Sequence record: PZ583739.1
DNA length: 64,000 nt
From: a phage
Direction: 5' to 3' (one strand)
The first letter of the stretch is position 1, and the number at the start of each line of letters is the position of its first letter. Made by a program: the position numbers and the translations under genes. This document shows positions 413 through 60,793 of the stretch, one piece after another. The notes under the pieces were generated by a model. The model worked only from the letters and a program-made list of their open reading frames with translations. It was not told the DNA's origin and did no database searches.

Positions 413-438
413 ATTATACAGCCATAAAATTAAAGCAT
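413..438 (-). promoter_or_regulatory. MotA-box middle promoter upstream of uvsY
   Basis: Minus strand reads aTGCTTTA, 12 nt spacer, TATAAT, about 30 nt upstream of the uvsY ATG. Confidence 0.5.
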
Positions 439-32800: not shown

Positions 32801-33469
32801 TCAAAGTGATTGAAGCGTTATTTGACAGTTTTTAACGGTCTCGATGAACAATTTACGAGCTTCAAGAGAATCTATATTTAAGATTTTCTTATAGGCATTT
32901 AGTTTGGTTGAATACTTTTCCCAAACCAAGTCGTTAGTCTGTTCATCATGTTTATTTATAATACCTAAAAATGAATCAAGCAAACAAAACGTTTCAAATG
33001 AGATAACATTCGATTGGAGAAGTTTGAAAATATAACTTGTATTCACTTTAGTATTATACTCGAAAATCTCTTGGAGCGATTTGACTTCGACTTTCTTACT
33101 GAAGTAATAGATGTTCTTTATATCATCTTCGTATACTTGTCTAATTCTTTTAAGTCGGCCAATGTATTCTCTATAAAATATCAGAGCATCGGCATCACTT
33201 ATATCGCCTATCCATGCATCCTGGTTTGCAACCAGGTTTGACATGAATATTAACGTTAATTCTTTAAGAGTGTACTTATCGCTAAGCTTTTCGAAAAAAT
33301 ACTTATCGCGACGTTTTTGATAAGCACTATCGGAGATTCGCATGGTCCAGTTATATTTGATAATATCATAACGACCCGAAAAATGCTGTTTGATGGATAA
33401 GTACAGTTGGTATACTGATTTACCATTTATATATCGGTTGTTATTTGGAGGCATGCGAATCGTAATCAT
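32801..33469 (-). CDS. 59: helicase loader gp59
   Basis: 222 aa; YQKRRDKYFF, LVANQDAWIGDISDADAL, EIFEYN blocks match T4 gp59. Confidence 0.85.
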   Translation of the reverse strand: MITIRMPPNNNRYINGKSVYQLYLSIKQHFSGRYDIIKYNWTMRISDSAYQKRRDKYFFEKLSDKYTLKELTLIFMSNLVANQDAWIGDISDADALIFYREYIGRLKRIRQVYEDDIKNIYYFSKKVEVKSLQEIFEYNTKVNTSYIFKLLQSNVISFETFCLLDSFLGIINKHDEQTNDLVWEKYSTKLNAYKKILNIDSLEARKLFIETVKNCQITLQSL

Positions 33470-50755: not shown

Positions 50756-51100
50756 CTATTTTTGAAGTTGTTCTAAAATAAATCCGCTGGTGTAAAGGCT
50801 TGCATTATACAGGCGGTCAAGAGATAACGAATCCAATCCATAAGCTTCACGAATTGCATTGATAACACTTTCATAACTTGTATAATAAACATCGCGATAA
50901 TCGCGGTCCATAGTCATGCGGAACTTAATAAATTTGTAGAAACCAGTTTCAGGGTCCTGATAGAATGCAAATTCTGCAGACATCAAATTTTTAAGGTTAA
51001 CAGCCTTTGTACCACCTGAATAACTTAAATCAAATGCTTCTGATACGCTAATCTGTTTAAAGAACATAATGTTGCGATTACCAAAAAATACTTTAGACAT
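50756..51100 (-). CDS. hypothetical protein
   Basis: Track ORF 50756..51124; ATG at 51098-51100 with SD GGAAAA gives 114 aa. Confidence 0.45.
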   Translation of the reverse strand: MSKVFFGNRNIMFFKQISVSEAFDLSYSGGTKAVNLKNLMSAEFAFYQDPETGFYKFIKFRMTMDRDYRDVYYTSYESVINAIREAYGLDSLSLDRLYNASLYTSGFILEQLQK

Positions 51101-51110
51101 AATATTTTCC

Positions 51111-51323
51111 TTATTCAGCGTCAACAGAAATAGCCATCAGTTCATCAACGGTAAGGCACTGTACACTAGGGCCTACACAAAAACGCTTAGTTGAATCATA
51201 AAGGTCCGTAGCATTAACAGGTTGTAATTCGGTCCCAACTTGCAAAGGAGAAATGCGAATCAGTTGTTGGCCATTATGTAATACAAAGCTCTCGCCGACT
51301 ACCACATCTTTAAAAAGTTTCAT
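51111..51323 (-). CDS. hypothetical protein
   Basis: 70 aa ORF. Confidence 0.4.
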   Translation of the reverse strand: MKLFKDVVVGESFVLHNGQQLIRISPLQVGTELQPVNATDLYDSTKRFCVGPSVQCLTVDELMAISVDAE

Positions 51324-51340
51324 AATGTTTTCCTCAGAAG

Positions 51341-51529
51341 TTAAAGAATTTCTTCAATTTGGATGTATTTGCTATAACCTTCCTCAATGAGGATATCACG
51401 AGCACAATCAGCACTGATATAAGCATTAAAGCTAAGGGTTGCAATCACTTTACCGTGCAGCTTTACTTTATAAATTCGATTACCCATAATATTTTCCTCA
51501 GAAGTTAAAGAATACACGTACATGGTCAA
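51341..51529 (-). CDS. hypothetical protein
   Basis: 62 aa ORF; start may be an internal ATG. Confidence 0.35.
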   Translation of the reverse strand: MTMYVYSLTSEENIMGNRIYKVKLHGKVIATLSFNAYISADCARDILIEEGYSKYIQIEEIL

Positions 51530-51822
51530 TCATAAAAACGATTGGGAAAATGCTCAATACCATTAACAACACAAACATGTTCCAAATGACTTTAAGTAAC
51601 TTTTTCATAATCATCTCCAGCAGTTGATAGGTTCATTATACTACAACCACCGGAGATGTACAACTCTTTTATGCAAGTTTCATTAATAATAAACTAAAAC
51701 AAACGCAAATTACTGGGATACACAACATCCAGATAAGACACCAGGTTTTGCTGCTCAAAATATCACCTCTTTTATTTCAATCAGACCCCTGTGCAATGCG
51801 GTGCGAAGGTCATAAAGAATAT

Positions 51823-52020
51823 CTATGCCATCAACATTATCCAGTTTTCCATCAATAAGCTTTTTAAATCACGCTTTGATGCAACTAGCGGGCGAAGAAA
51901 TTTACATTCAGAAAGAGACAATTCTGTAGTAATATCATCACCATCACCTGACGCATCATACATGGCAGCAACAACCATACCTGTAACTTTGTGCTTGGCG
52001 TAATATAATTTGATATCCAT
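51823..52020 (-). CDS. hypothetical protein
   Basis: ATG at 52018-52020 preceded by leader catgaggaaaacaaaATG (also seen at 8013 and 18484); 65 aa. Confidence 0.4.
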   Translation of the reverse strand: MDIKLYYAKHKVTGMVVAAMYDASGDGDDITTELSLSECKFLRPLVASKRDLKSLLMENWIMLMA

Positions 52021-52030
52021 TTTGTTTTCC

Positions 52031-52186
52031 TCATGCATAACGATTGTATGTATTTTTGCGACACGCGTAAAATTGACGCTCAGTAACTGCAAAACTTTTT
52101 CCGCGCTGTTGCATTAATTTAAAAAATTCAGTAATATCGCCATTAACTTCAAGGTATAAAGTCATTGCATATTGAGCAGGTTTCAT
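52031..52186 (-). CDS. small ORF (51 aa), not in the ORF track
   Basis: ATG at 52184-52186 preceded by conserved leader ...actggagaataaaATG; MKPAQYAMTLYLEVNGD... Confidence 0.35.
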   Translation of the reverse strand: MKPAQYAMTLYLEVNGDITEFFKLMQQRGKSFAVTERQFYACRKNTYNRYA

Positions 52187-52211
52187 TTTATTCTCCAGTC
52201 TGTTTGGTAAC

Positions 52212-52254
52212 TCAGTATGGAATCATTATACAATAGACTCCATACTGATGTACA
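52212..52254 (-). promoter_or_regulatory. early promoter embedded in stem-loop (PeSL-like)
   Basis: Minus strand TGTACA, 18 nt, TATAAT; 10-bp inverted repeat tcagtatgga/tccatactga brackets the -10. Confidence 0.5.
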
Positions 52255-52265
52255 CTACTTTTTAA

Positions 52266-52541
52266 TTAATTGTGCATTTGTTCTTTAACTTCTTTATATG
52301 CGCCAACTGCATTCACGACCCCAGTAAAATCTGCAGTCCCACGATATAGATAGAAAGCAATTTCAGTCAGGTGGTATACTTCAAATTCTGAAAGATAAAT
52401 GATAACGTCATAATATGCAACTTGACCCTGGACTTCGTTGAATGCCACATCAAAAATTTCATGGGTTGGAAAATTGATGTTGTTGTTTTTGAGTGCTTGG
52501 ATAAGGATTTGTTTGATGTTGTGAGTAGTAACGTGTTCCAT
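52266..52541 (-). CDS. hypothetical protein
   Basis: Track ORF 52266..52646 overlaps its upstream neighbour; ATG with SD GAGGA gives 91 aa (MEHVTTHNIKQ...). Confidence 0.45.
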   Translation of the reverse strand: MEHVTTHNIKQILIQALKNNNINFPTHEIFDVAFNEVQGQVAYYDVIIYLSEFEVYHLTEIAFYLYRGTADFTGVVNAVGAYKEVKEQMHN

Positions 52542-52588
52542 GATAATGTCCTCATTTGTTGGTATGAGGACATTATTACACAGTTGGT

Positions 52589-53185
52589 TCAGCTTGTAAA
52601 CCGGTGATAGGGAAATTTTTCTTCTGAACAAGAACGGAGGTACCAACCATCCCCTTGTGACTTCTGCACAAGACCAGACTCAGGAACGAAAGCACCAGGT
52701 CCAGCAAGGAATTTTGGTTTAAATCTATAACCTTTGAGAGTCTCTTTTACATTAAACATAATCATAAGGTCAGCAAGCTTGTGTTGCATAAAAGGACCAA
52801 GATTGACCCCGTAACCATGCGGATAATCACCCTGGTGACCAGTATGCACGGATATCCATTTGGAACCAGACTGATGAGTCTTGACTTCGATTCTTACCCC
52901 TTCCTTCGAAACTACATCAAATGCAAAGGAATAAGGATTATCGTAATCTTCATCACCGCCACATAAAAAACCGGAGGTCCATTTAGCAATAGCTTGTTCA
53001 GCCATTGTGGCCACCATACATCTTTGCATGACTTGCTCACGGTCCTGACCTGGGTCTTTACGCAATGAATACCTAGCCGTGTCTACAATCTTTTGCAGGG
53101 ATTCAGGGGTTAAGTCTTCCTTTGTATAAAGAAAGGAGGGCATCTTTTTCAGATGCTCCCATGTTTTACTCTTCTGAATCATCAG
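52589..53185 (-). CDS. hypothetical protein (T4 denB position; identity unconfirmed)
   Basis: Track start is TTG at 53266; ATG at 53180-53182 (adopted end coordinate 53185 is approximate within a few nt) gives about 198 aa; lies between rIIB and the ndd-proximal genes. Confidence 0.35.
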   Translation of the reverse strand: MMIQKSKTWEHLKKMPSFLYTKEDLTPESLQKIVDTARYSLRKDPGQDREQVMQRCMVATMAEQAIAKWTSGFLCGGDEDYDNPYSFAFDVVSKEGVRIEVKTHQSGSKWISVHTGHQGDYPHGYGVNLGPFMQHKLADLMIMFNVKETLKGYRFKPKFLAGPGAFVPESGLVQKSQGDGWYLRSCSEEKFPYHRFTS

Positions 53186-53186
53186 C

Positions 53187-53507
53187 TCATCCTTTAAAAT
53201 ACATATCGGATTTTTCGACAATATCCAAAGAATTTTGCTCAGCTTGCTCTTGATAATCACTGCCAATATAAACTTTGTCTACATGAACGACGCCATAATA
53301 AATTCTGGCACTTTCGGCTAGAGTGGAATGGTCCAGACTACGAAGTTCTTCTTTCGTTGCAAGAATGATGTCTCTCGCATATAACCGGCCAGTTGACTTT
53401 GTAGAAGCATAATGGCAATCAACACAATAAACAATATCCGCAACATGATTACCATGCAACCGAATTTCGTTAATAGATTCATCACCAACGTTCATATAGT
53501 TAATCAT
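53187..53507 (-). CDS. hypothetical protein
   Basis: 106 aa ORF. Confidence 0.4.
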   Translation of the reverse strand: MINYMNVGDESINEIRLHGNHVADIVYCVDCHYASTKSTGRLYARDIILATKEELRSLDHSTLAESARIYYGVVHVDKVYIGSDYQEQAEQNSLDIVEKSDMYFKG

Positions 53508-57693: not shown

Positions 57694-57701
57694 TATTTAT
57701 A
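57694..57701 (-). promoter_or_regulatory. T4-type late promoter motif (TATAAATA) overlapping the gene 39 stop
   Basis: Minus strand TATAAATA immediately upstream of a 20-bp palindrome and the small ORF at 57502..57654. Confidence 0.4.
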
Positions 57702-59529
57702 GCGTCGCATTCATCCAGTCTTTACGCTGCTGGGAATCTTTACCGAATAGCATTTCGAACAGTTCTTTCCAATTGTCGGGCAATTGAACAACTTCGAATA
57801 CTGGCTCGAGCAATACGCGTTTGTACTCTGAATCTTCCAGAGAACCAAGCCCCTTGATATATCGAATGGTATGCTTCGGAAGTTTATCCTTAGCTTCTTC
57901 GTAATCAGGAAGAGAATAGAACCATTCTTGTTTATCTTTGAGCTGTGCAATAATAACAGGAGTTTTCACAAAGCGAATTCGTCCTTCATGGAACAGCTCT
58001 GGCCAGTTACTGAAAAACGCCAATAACGATGGATAGATACTACCAACACCATCCACATCCGCATCTGTCATGATAGCAATGTTTCGGTAATTCATATTCT
58101 CGGCCGGTTGTCCAATCGTTAAACCAGTAATCGCACACACATCAAAGGCTTCAGCGTTCTTCATAACTTCAACAGCTTTCAGACCCCATGTGTTTTTAAA
58201 CTTACCACGTAACGGATAAGCACCTTGCAATTCACGGTCACGAACCTTGATAAACGGACCCGTTGCAGAATCTCCTTCGGTCAGGAATAGAGTCGTTTCC
58301 AGCTTATCATTACCCCATTCGTTGGCTTTGATATGCTTTTGTACCTTGGCCTTTGAAGCTTTCTTATTTGCTTTAGTCTCTGCTGCTTTCTCTGCAGCCA
58401 ATTTACGAGCCAATGCAGCTTCAATGATAGGCGTCAGAATAGCTTCTGATTTTAACAACGAACCAGCTAACTTTTTGCCATCAACCTGGATATGTGATTT
58501 AATTTCACCGGCAGGTGAAGTCAATCGCTCCTTAGTCTGGGAATCAAATCGCATGTTCTTCATATTGCGAATAAACATCAACAATGTAATACATTCTTTA
58601 ACGCGTGCTTTGGTTACTTCAATTTTATACTTGCGTTTAATCGCCGGGATTAACACATCACACATTTCATCCATAACACATTCAATATGGTGACCACCAT
58701 TTTTTGTATGGATTCCGTTAACATAAGTCACATGACGGAAACCATCGGGTGACCGACCAATTGCAATTGAGCAATTATCTTGTTCCTGAATAATGATTTC
58801 ATCATCGTATTGCTTGGCATATTTTTTAAAGTGACCTTGCACTTTTTTACCATTGAACTTGAATTCGATATCCGGATAAATGACTGCAAGAGTCTGGATT
58901 TGGTCAAGCATAATTTGGACATATGTTTCGTCAAAACCAGACGTTTCAAAATTCGAAAAATCCGGAATAAATTTAACTTTAGTTCCTTGCAACTTTGATG
59001 GTTTTGATTTCCATGAAATATTATCAAGTCCATTTGAACAATTAACGGTTAATTCATTTTTCCCATCTGATGTAGTGCCTGTGAACAATATTGAAAAAAT
59101 ATTGGTAAGACTGGACCCAACTCCGTTCATCCCAGTGGTAACACGATTTGCATCATCACTAAAGTTTCCACCCGAACGAACCTTGGTCCATGCAGCGACC
59201 GGCCCAGGAATTTCTTCGCCTTCTGGGGTTACAACAATCGCCTGTGGAATGCCTCGACCATTATCTTCAACGGTCACTTCGTTTGTTTTGATATCAATAT
59301 TCAATGAAATTTTGTTTGCAAATTTAAAATTGGTGCGAATAGCTTCATCAATAGAGTTATTTGCAATTTCTTCGATTAATTTAATTAAACCTGGAACGTA
59401 TTGAACCTTTTTATATTCACCAAACAGAAAAATTTCTTTGTCTTCATTGGTAACACTACCGATGTACATTGATGGGCGAGCTTTTACGTGAGCTACATCA
59501 GAAAGGATTTGAATTTCATTCTTAATCAT
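57697..59529 (-). CDS. 39: DNA topoisomerase II large subunit, fused gp39/gp60 form (GyrB-like ATPase)
   Basis: 610 aa continuous ORF; GHKL ATPase motifs (NSIDEA, EDNGRGIP) at the N-terminus; longer than T4 gp39 (516 aa), consistent with the gp60 part being fused. Confidence 0.9.
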   Translation of the reverse strand: MIKNEIQILSDVAHVKARPSMYIGSVTNEDKEIFLFGEYKKVQYVPGLIKLIEEIANNSIDEAIRTNFKFANKISLNIDIKTNEVTVEDNGRGIPQAIVVTPEGEEIPGPVAAWTKVRSGGNFSDDANRVTTGMNGVGSSLTNIFSILFTGTTSDGKNELTVNCSNGLDNISWKSKPSKLQGTKVKFIPDFSNFETSGFDETYVQIMLDQIQTLAVIYPDIEFKFNGKKVQGHFKKYAKQYDDEIIIQEQDNCSIAIGRSPDGFRHVTYVNGIHTKNGGHHIECVMDEMCDVLIPAIKRKYKIEVTKARVKECITLLMFIRNMKNMRFDSQTKERLTSPAGEIKSHIQVDGKKLAGSLLKSEAILTPIIEAALARKLAAEKAAETKANKKASKAKVQKHIKANEWGNDKLETTLFLTEGDSATGPFIKVRDRELQGAYPLRGKFKNTWGLKAVEVMKNAEAFDVCAITGLTIGQPAENMNYRNIAIMTDADVDGVGSIYPSLLAFFSNWPELFHEGRIRFVKTPVIIAQLKDKQEWFYSLPDYEEAKDKLPKHTIRYIKGLGSLEDSEYKRVLLEPVFEVVQLPDNWKELFEMLFGKDSQQRKDWMNATL

Positions 59530-60322
59530 TTTTGACCTCTAAATTTTTAGTATAACCTAAACATTTCCAACTGGACCATTTTACATCATCGGAATTGCAG
59601 CGTTTTCGTAATGTAGGATAACTAATACCAAGAACTTCGGCGGCTTCTTTTCGGGTTGTGAATATGACCCCATTTATAGAGTACGTTTTAGCCTCGGGAT
59701 TTTTATCACCAGAGAATAATTTTGATAATTTATCTTTGTGTTCAAGAGAAAGATGTTTGCCAAAGAAATGATGATTTTCGCCTGCTTTACGCAGGGAGAC
59801 ATTATAACCAAAATCATCGGGGTATGGCTTTCTTTTAACACCAGTTCCATATATTCTATTATATTCGGTTTTATCTAACAGTTTATTCCGTTTTTTAACG
59901 GCTTCGCCTTTAAGTAAATTAATTTCCGCTTTTCTTGGATGATTGGACATTGTGTCACCACCAAAATCCGCCAACGTTATATTATAACCGTTTTTGATAG
60001 AATTTAATTCAGTTATCCAGAAACTTTCTCTTTTCAAGAAATATTTTTTATTATAAACTTCTATATTTTCTATTAGTTTGCATACAAATGATTCTTTACC
60101 GTATTTGTCATATGCAAACTGTAAATGGCTGTTTATGCCAACACCTTTGGATAAATTCCGAAAATGCGTGGCAATTCTACGATGAAAATCATTTGAACTT
60201 CCTATATAATATTTTTGAGATATTAAATTATAAATTATATAAATCCCACTATTTCCACTCGATGGTGGAATATAATCAGGAAATTTATTTTTTATTATCC
60301 CGAATACTTCATTAATCATCAT
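59522..60322 (-). mobile_element. GIY-YIG homing endonuclease (Seg-like) gene
   Basis: 266 aa; GIYIIYNLISQKYYIGSS GIY-YIG motif; C-terminal helix-turn-helix-like segment EAAEVLGISYPTLRKR; overlaps the gene 39 start by 8 nt. Confidence 0.75.
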
Positions 60323-60344
60323 CTTTCCTCTTGTGTATGGAGGT

Positions 60345-60370
60345 ATTATAAGTCACATGTTTTAAAGCAA
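60345..60370 (-). promoter_or_regulatory. MotA-box middle promoter upstream of the homing endonuclease gene
   Basis: Minus strand TTGCTTTA, 12 nt, TATAAT, then SD AAGAGGAAAG and ATG. Confidence 0.45.
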
Positions 60371-60388
60371 AAAGGCCCGAAGGCCTTT
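60368..60388 (-). terminator. rho-independent terminator
   Basis: ggcc-ttcg-ggcc hairpin flanked by T-runs, directly after the stop of 60388..60786. Confidence 0.55.
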
Positions 60389-60786
60389 TATTTGAATCGA
60401 AGCTGCTCTAACATTTTAATAGCTTGTAGACGGCCGGCTTCAGTTTTAACCGTAATAATAACATCGCCGCCAGTAACAACGATATCCTCTTTTGATTCCT
60501 GTTCGGTTATTTCAGAATCACATTCCGGGACTTCTTCAAAATATTTAAATTCATCACCAAAAATAAGACCGGTTCCATTACGACTATGGAAAGAAAATCC
60601 AGTTCCATCGATAGTACTAAATTCCGTAACAACATTTGCTTCCATCTTAGTGACTGAAAACTCTTTGGTAGTAACCAAATCAATGATAGAGGTTCCCTGT
60701 TGGTTCAAAATGCTACCAGGCATACCAACATGTTTAAGGAAGCCATCTAAATCTTTAATGTGATAACTCTTTCCAATTTTAAACAT
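60388..60786 (-). CDS. hypothetical protein
   Basis: 132 aa ORF. Confidence 0.45.
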   Translation of the reverse strand: MFKIGKSYHIKDLDGFLKHVGMPGSILNQQGTSIIDLVTTKEFSVTKMEANVVTEFSTIDGTGFSFHSRNGTGLIFGDEFKYFEEVPECDSEITEQESKEDIVVTGGDVIITVKTEAGRLQAIKMLEQLRFK

Positions 60787-60793
60787 AATATCC

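Follow-up and report, generated by a model that had tools for sequence, protein, structure and literature searches.

A free-standing I-TevI-like gene at the start of topoisomerase gene 39 in a Gaprivervirus genome: a likely case of intronless homing with co-conversion

In a 64,000-nucleotide stretch of phage DNA (record PZ583739.1, hereafter the window), an open reading frame (ORF) for a 266-amino-acid (aa) protein occupies the start of gene 39, which encodes the large subunit of topoisomerase II. We consider it likely that this ORF is a homing endonuclease gene, free-standing and of the I-TevI branch, and that it spreads by intronless homing with co-conversion of adjacent gene 39 sequence. 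The region is 95–98% identical to that of the Gaprivervirus phages SP18, RZ, P479 and the VR and TH series, by which the window phage is assigned to Gaprivervirus, as a T4-like coliphage. A sequence-only reading of the same DNA had proposed a Seg-like GIY-YIG endonuclease at this position; as described below, most of what it claimed has been borne out, while its account of the promoter and of the Seg relationship has to be modified.

The ORF, called as such and identified through TIGR01453 and a match to I-TevI, lies at 59522..60322 on the minus strand; its translation begins MMINEVFG and contains GIYIIYNLISQKYYIGSS and SGIYIIYNLISQKYYIGSS. Directly downstream on the same strand is gene 39 (57697..59529, 610 aa; phrog_543, E = 5.8e-267). 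The two genes overlap by 8 nucleotides (nt), ATGATTAA, at 59522..59529, where the final endonuclease codons AAT GAT TAA share bases with the gene 39 start ATG ATT AAG. This is the arrangement described from the sequence alone, although the upper coordinate given there, 60392, takes in the upstream hairpin and promoter. Gene 39 had also been called unsplit, and it is indeed the whole 39+60 form: in profile searches phrog_543 covers residues 1–609, the gp60-like phrog_7229 matches residues 454–608, and Pfam TOPRIM_C matches residues 523–608.

The protein is predicted to be a GIY-YIG endonuclease of the I-TevI branch whose linker lacks a zinc finger. Its catalytic domain (aa 25–121; 59960..60250, minus strand) matches Pfam PF01541 over residues 25–114 with E = 3.5e-11 and 43.7 bits against a cut-off of 22.6. 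Further along lie a NUMOD3 motif (aa 176–200; 59723..59797, minus strand; PF07460, 25.6 bits against a cut-off of 20.4) and a putative C-terminal helix-turn-helix of I-TevI type (aa 201–252; 59567..59722, minus strand), for which PF20987 gives 25.1 bits, just below its cut-off of 27. The GIY-YIG and NUMOD profiles for which the sequence-only reading suggested a search were both found, and the helix-turn-helix-like segment that it had noticed at the C-terminus corresponds to the sub-threshold match. Furthermore, the NCBIfam model TIGR01453, ‘group I intron endonuclease’, spans residues 25–252 (profile positions 2–210 of 215) with 101.9 bits against a cut-off of 56.05, and BLASTP aligns the protein with T4 I-TevI at 36.5% identity across 241 aa (E = 8.5e-36).

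Structural comparison points the same way. Among solved structures, real matches were confined to I-TevI, namely its catalytic domain (1mk0/1ln0, E = 1.8e-19) and its DNA-binding domain (1i3j, E = 2e-4 from sequence and Foldseek probability 1.00 for the model). The AlphaFold model has a mean predicted local distance difference test score (pLDDT) of 66.8, with 80–89 across the catalytic domain, and the predicted catalytic domain superposes on 1ln0 with a template modelling (TM) score of 0.92 and a root-mean-square deviation of 1.1 Å. Residues Y28, Y39, R49, H53, E99 and N114, the equivalents of I-TevI Y6, Y17, R27, H31, E75 and N90, are invariant in the alignments. The zinc finger PF22635, which scores 73.4 bits in I-TevI, has no match in the 266-aa protein, and the alignment shows no Cys cluster.

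As for the Seg relationship, Edgell et al. define the Seg class as the free-standing GIY-YIG endonucleases of T-even-type phages (PMC2988022). The present GIY-YIG gene sits between genes, namely an RB69ORF005c-like ORF and gene 39, and belongs to the class in this operational sense. The term ‘Seg-like’ fits in this sense only, because the T4 Seg proteins are not detectably related: the only T4 match by tblastn at E ≤ 1e-5 is I-TevI, and SegG of SP18 gives E = 0.69. Thus, the earlier label describes correctly how the gene is organized but not its sequence, which is I-TevI-like.

Comparison with SP18, which lacks the segment 59530..60310, reveals the insertion at base level. The SP18 junction reads TATAATACCTCCATACACAAGAGGAAAG ATG ATG ATT AAT AAT GAA ATT AAA, so that gp39 begins MMINNEIK. 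The window equals SP18 through ATG ATG ATT AAT and then continues GAA GTA TTC, yielding the endonuclease start MMINEVF. The reading TTA GAG GTC AAA AAT GAT TAA follows 790 nt further on, and the other frame there contains ATG ATT AAG AAT GAA ATT CAA, from which the relocated gp39 of the window begins MIKNEIQ. The 790-bp insert is flanked by a direct repeat of the 8-mer ATGATTAA (59522–59529 and 60312–60319); the SP18 alignment fits both flanks of the insert across 9 overlapping bases, and in SP18 itself the flanks join with this 9-nt overlap. The insertion thus lies exactly at the gene 39 start codon, and the insert has taken over the ancestral promoter, Shine-Dalgarno sequence and first four codons of gene 39. 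Those four codons (ATGATGATTAAT, 60311–60322) open a 24-aa N-terminal extension of the endonuclease (60251..60322, minus strand), to which I-TevI and the other homologues in the alignment have no counterpart; on reading the sequence, no internal ATG, GTG or TTG start was found ahead of residue 25.

The captured signals can be listed in their order on the minus strand: the stop of the upstream 132-aa ORF, a hairpin, TGCTTTA, 12 nt, TATAAT, AAGAGGAAAG and ATGATG. By motif match, the middle three make up a T4-type middle promoter at 60345..60369 (minus strand), with MotA box TGCTTTA, a 12-nt spacer and TATAAT. The pattern TGCTTTA-N(11-13)-TATAAT, which fits the T4 middle-promoter consensus, has two matches in the 64-kb window, where chance alone would give 0.04. 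The region AAGAGGAAAG (60323..60332, minus strand) holds the Shine-Dalgarno sequence; it is identical in SP18 directly before the ATG of gene 39, to which it is ancestral, and would now serve the endonuclease gene. Gene 39 has a new candidate Shine-Dalgarno sequence, GAGG (59536..59539, minus strand; TAGAGGTCAAAAATGATTAAG), within the last codons of the endonuclease gene, 6 nt before its ATG. Because the 3′ end of the insert provides this ribosome-binding site and the stop codon overlaps the ATG, the endonuclease gene and gene 39 would constitute one transcription unit, with the captured middle promoter presumably driving both.

The sequence-only reading had credited the endonuclease gene with a middle promoter of its own. 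The motif is there and is perfect, but it is the ancestral gene 39 promoter and occurs in relatives without the endonuclease gene, where promoter plus terminator are 95–97% identical; the sequence at 60345..60369 precedes gene 39 in SP18 and a different endonuclease gene in RZ. On the minus strand between 59400 and 60400, neither a MotA box nor the late motif TATAAATA was found besides this upstream promoter, and a sigma-70 scan for an internal gene 39 promoter was at chance level (12 found, 11.6 expected). The arrangement matches that described for seven free-standing endonuclease genes of T4, which are promoter-less cassettes in host operons (PMC2988022).

The gene is rare and its site is polymorphic; a universal presence, which would have spoken against the sequence-only reading, was not seen. 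In 22 distinct Gaprivervirus genomes the site is empty, i.e., the flanks abut with a 9-nt overlap (counted from abutting alignment coordinates, with the SP18 junction examined in detail). Three copies are known, all with a full-length ORF: that of the window, that of phage P479 (98.9% aa identity, annotated ‘hypothetical protein’), and that of a 1,988-bp Logan metagenome contig, L016, which has 97% aa identity and the same promoter, gene and gene 39 allele. IMG/VR holds distant relatives only, 30–33% identical over comparable stretches, plus one 54-residue match at 40%, and no identical protein sequence is on record elsewhere. A search of 5.8 billion proteins found one close cluster (P0001), all others being at most 42% identical to the query. 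The next-closest phage homologues (38–43%) occur in T4-like phages of Klebsiella and Acinetobacter, as free-standing genes that lie between td and nrdA. Among the papers searched, none describes this gene or a Gaprivervirus endonuclease gene at gene 39. The gene was previously unannotated and belongs to a well-known kind of mobile element.

The gene does not stand alone as foreign sequence. The upstream flank is 95–98% identical to SP18 and RZ up to the ATG. Past the insert, gene 39 of the window is only 56–80% identical to that of SP18 across the first ~1,100 nt, against 91–99% for the remainder, and 65–78% identical to that of RZ across the first ~700 nt, against 87–100%. In gp39 itself, identity to SP18 is 58–84% over the first 400 residues and 100% over the last 210. 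P479 shares the unusual part. A mobile block comprising the endonuclease gene and ~1 kb from the 5′ end of gene 39 (58535..60385) is near-identical between the two phages, with 6 mismatches in 1,851 bp (99.7%) against 49 in 1,135 bp (95.7%) just outside (Fisher p = 2.6e-15). This indicates recent sharing between two otherwise diverged Gapriverviruses. When the first 930 nt of gene 39 were searched, no phage record besides P479 was more than 76% identical; the donor lineage is therefore unsampled, with the exception of the Logan contig (92% identical). The unit of ~1.85 kb is thus foreign to the genus backbone. Homing with co-conversion on one side would produce such a mosaic, which is a signature of it only; a target of the endonuclease inside gene 39 would fit the marked divergence over the first 1 kb of that gene.

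Selection on the gene was gauged against the Logan copy, from which the window copy differs by 24 synonymous and 9 non-synonymous codon changes. The Nei-Gojobori ratio of non-synonymous to synonymous divergence (dN/dS) comes to 0.083 for the whole gene and to 0.053 for the catalytic domain, which means purifying selection on a protein-coding gene and argues for an active protein; the adjoining segment of gene 39 (58396–59529) has a ratio of 0.01. Measured against the contig, synonymous divergence reaches 0.18 for the endonuclease gene and 0.45 for the neighbouring gene 39 segment, so the endonuclease gene may have been exchanged more recently than its flank diverged.

How the gene would spread can be outlined as follows. 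In a mixed infection, the enzyme would make a double-strand break in the genome of an endonuclease-free phage, in or near the 5′ end of gene 39 or in the promoter region. The break would be repaired from the endonuclease-carrying genome, and the repair would copy the endonuclease gene together with adjacent gene 39 sequence. The carrier’s own site would be protected because the insert disrupts it and because the carrier’s gene 39 5′ end is divergent. We infer this mechanism from the anatomy of the locus, comparative genomics and precedent; the free-standing endonucleases of T4 cleave the neighbouring gene and co-convert its flanks (PMC2988022).

Several observations weigh against this account. 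At the start codon the upstream junction is abrupt, and no co-conversion tract extends to that side; a first insertion by illegitimate or microhomology-mediated recombination would account for this at least as well as two-sided homing. Ordinary recombination among T4-like phages could give the same mosaic without any action of the endonuclease. The 24-aa N-terminal extension is absent from the characterised relatives. Finally, all three nucleotide differences from the P479 copy are non-synonymous, namely K82E (60079), D206G (59706) and N243K (59594), which could reflect relaxed constraint in both lineages.

This last point raises the question of whether the enzyme still homes. A decaying or domesticated endonuclease would either drift to loss or persist as a DNA-binding regulator. 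I-TevI represses its own promoter, and so the present protein could likewise bind the promoter or translation-start region of gene 39. Besides the three changes from P479, a loss of homing would be in line with the missing zinc finger, which is the distance determinant of I-TevI, with a helix-turn-helix that falls just under the Pfam cut-off, and with the rarity of the gene, found in two phages and one contig. However, the deeper comparison with the Logan copy gives the low dN/dS values above, six of six catalytic positions are intact, all three copies are full length, and the 1.85-kb block that P479 has in near-identical form points to recent transfer; we therefore regard decay or domestication as unlikely. 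That the nuclease serves the phage instead, by cutting competing T4-like phages or host DNA without copying its own gene, we regard as very unlikely. GIY-YIG nucleases are versatile, the gene lies behind a middle promoter and within an operon essential for replication, and marker exclusion by Seg enzymes benefits the carrier (PMC2988022). Against such a service speak the linked foreign segment of gene 39 and the P479 block, which are features expected of endonuclease-centred gene conversion. Since exclusion and homing are not mutually exclusive, a service to the phage would be more a by-product than a separate mechanism.

A third possibility is that the insert is a group I intron interrupting gene 39 after codon 4. 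Splicing would then yield MMIN|NEIQ, colinear with MMINNEIK of SP18; the ORF continues the reading frame of the four ancestral codons, a U closes the putative 5′ exon and a G the insert, as at group I splice sites, and the protein itself falls into a subfamily, TIGR01453, named for group I introns. This is nonetheless extremely unlikely. The ORF fills the 790-nt insert and, apart from the stretch homologous to I-TevI, only ~114 nt remain, which could not hold a ribozyme core; in the td intron, the core outside the ORF comprises ~280 nt. Gene 39 is provided with a GAGG-N6-ATG of its own and its product begins MIKNEI, and MI(E/D)N starts are also found in RZ, TG1 and Bp7, each with an upstream endonuclease gene that overlaps or adjoins the start. 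Sub-range Rfam scans of both insert ends, read up to E = 10, did not report Intron_gpI, while the 3′ half of the td intron, as positive control, was detected with 27.1 bits and E = 2.3e-5. The insert ends show chance Rfam matches only. The intron was rejected, in agreement with the sequence-only reading, which had taken the gene to be a likely freestanding one. Scanning the whole region was uninformative, because the T4 td locus was likewise negative at both thresholds. On the whole td locus (L008), cmscan with Rfam 15 missed the intron and produced a truncated match only when the sub-range ended inside it. Negative scans around ORF-containing introns are hence untrustworthy without a td-type control.

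The preferred reading, homing by a free-standing enzyme, is placed in a wider setting by other phages with endonuclease genes at the same place. RZ, VR26 and VR7 carry a 235–253-aa protein with an Endonuclease_7 domain (PF02945 at 65 bits, no GIY-YIG domain) between the promoter and gene 39 (RZ, L003, 1795–2502; VR26, L015, 2737–3495; the VR7 gene is known by its annotation). Its insertion point is 12 nt further upstream; the gene begins 12 nt ahead of the ancestral Shine-Dalgarno sequence, immediately following TATAATACCTCC, and is linked to its own, third divergent 5′ allele of gene 39. In Yersinia phage TG1 (Tegunavirus) and coliphage Bp7 (Dhakavirus), an unrelated NUMOD3 Seg-like gene for a protein of 226–227 aa lies upstream of gene 39 (TG1, L012, 2722–3405; Bp7, L013, 2723–3403). 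It ends AAT GAT TGA, and its overlap with the ATG of gene 39 is 8 nt long, like that in the window. The TG1/Bp7 protein compares with the window protein at E = 0.48 and scores only 21 bits with TIGR01453. Its RefSeq label, ‘HNH endonuclease’, finds no backing in the Pfam result.

Taken across these phages, the region between the gene 39 promoter and start appears to be a hot spot for endonuclease genes. Each invasion may bring a foreign 5′ segment of gene 39; within the genus, the ATPase domain of the topoisomerase has 58–84% aa identity against ~100% in the C-terminal third. The endonuclease may in addition bind a remnant of its homing site over the promoter and translation-start region and set the topoisomerase level, by analogy with I-TevI. 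Joined into a single scheme, these ideas describe a contested landing pad that at least three unrelated families invaded independently, endonuclease traffic as the main cause of ATPase-domain divergence in the topoisomerase, and an I-TevI-family protein that regulates the captured operon. As a whole we consider this scheme speculative and rather unlikely.

Upstream of the promoter lies an ORF for a 132-aa, RB69ORF005c-like protein (60388..60786, minus strand; phrog_622), which is closed by a terminator-like hairpin, AAAAGGCC-UUCG-GGCCUUUU (60370–60389, minus strand), with a folding free energy of −11.1 kcal/mol. This is the flanking terminator pointed out in the sequence-only reading. It is kept in SP18, RZ, P479 and the Logan contig, and is missing from the list of the terminator scan because only four T follow the stem. 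P479 lacks the 132-aa ORF (window 60400–60791), which is present in the window, SP18 and RZ; the deletion starts exactly at the end of the near-identical block, and the identity of P479 upstream of 60400 falls to 88–91%. A weak 4-bp hairpin could form in the leader between CCUC, just after the −10 element, and GAGG of the Shine-Dalgarno region (60323–60343, minus strand). The same pairing is found in SP18, i.e., in the ancestral gene 39 leader, and the fold does not stand out from shuffled sequence (z = −0.79).

Three further observations concern more distant parts of the window. The other perfect match to TGCTTTA-N(11-13)-TATAAT, at 413–437 (minus strand), is presumably another middle promoter. 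At 51000–53500, SP18 and P479 align only partly and RZ throughout, and the indel pattern common to the window and RZ is another sign of Gaprivervirus mosaicism. At 32820–32831, segG is missing from the window, where the flanks, each 97% identical to SP18, are ~10 bp apart; in SP18, segG, which encodes a GIY-YIG endonuclease, lies between genes 32 and 59. The endonuclease-gene contents of the two phages are reciprocal, since SP18 has segG and an empty gene 39 site and the window the opposite.

The case offers a clean natural example of what would be intronless homing, with an I-TevI-family enzyme outside an intron and without the distance-setting zinc finger, and it adds a presumed target gene, that of the topoisomerase large subunit, to the I-TevI family. 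Its base-level junctions show how a cassette can seize a promoter, a ribosome-binding site and first codons while providing the host gene with another ribosome-binding site. The case also allows an annotation to be corrected, because the only deposited copy, that of P479, is labelled ‘hypothetical protein’. With three occupants of one site within a genus, each with its own gene 39 allele, the locus would suit studies of endonuclease competition and of endonuclease-driven diversification of an essential gene, and the protein would offer a natural I-TevI variant for nuclease engineering. The current understanding of homing endonuclease elements is unchanged by this case.

Among known systems, I-TevI itself is the closest characterised match. 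The module order is the same, i.e., GIY-YIG, a long linker, a NUMOD3-type element and, in the window protein as a putative domain, a C-terminal helix-turn-helix. The differences are in setting and detail: I-TevI resides in the td group I intron and is expressed late, whereas the window gene lies outside any intron, at gene 39, behind a middle promoter; I-TevI has the linker zinc finger PF22635 and the window protein none; and the window protein has 24 extra N-terminal and 14 extra C-terminal residues. The genes of KpV477 (Klebsiella) and of AbTZA1 and Porter (Acinetobacter) resemble it in being free-standing and I-TevI-like with no visible I-TevI-type Cys cluster. They differ in lying next to td on the opposite strand, in having no N-terminal extension and in not being fused to the start of a host gene.

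With SegA–G of T4, the window gene has in common that it is a free-standing GIY-YIG gene and a promoter-less cassette on a host operon, that an adjacent essential gene is the likely target, and that a divergent flank is linked to it, consistent with co-conversion (PMC2988022); unlike the window gene’s likeness to I-TevI, there is no detectable similarity to the Seg proteins beyond the superfamily. T4 MobA shares the association of a homing endonuclease gene with the same topoisomerase gene: mobA is placed at 60.1/39, and gene 39 is named as the target (PMC2988022, Table 1), which agrees with the position between genes 39 and 60 given in the sequence-only reading. However, MobA is of the HNH family and the window protein of the GIY-YIG family, and mobA splits the gene near its 3′ end, with a 50-nt bypass element, whereas gene 39 of the window is whole. 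The Endonuclease VII-type gene of RZ, VR26 and VR7 (compare F-CphI, PMC6083498) has the same landing site in the same genus and encodes an unrelated protein.

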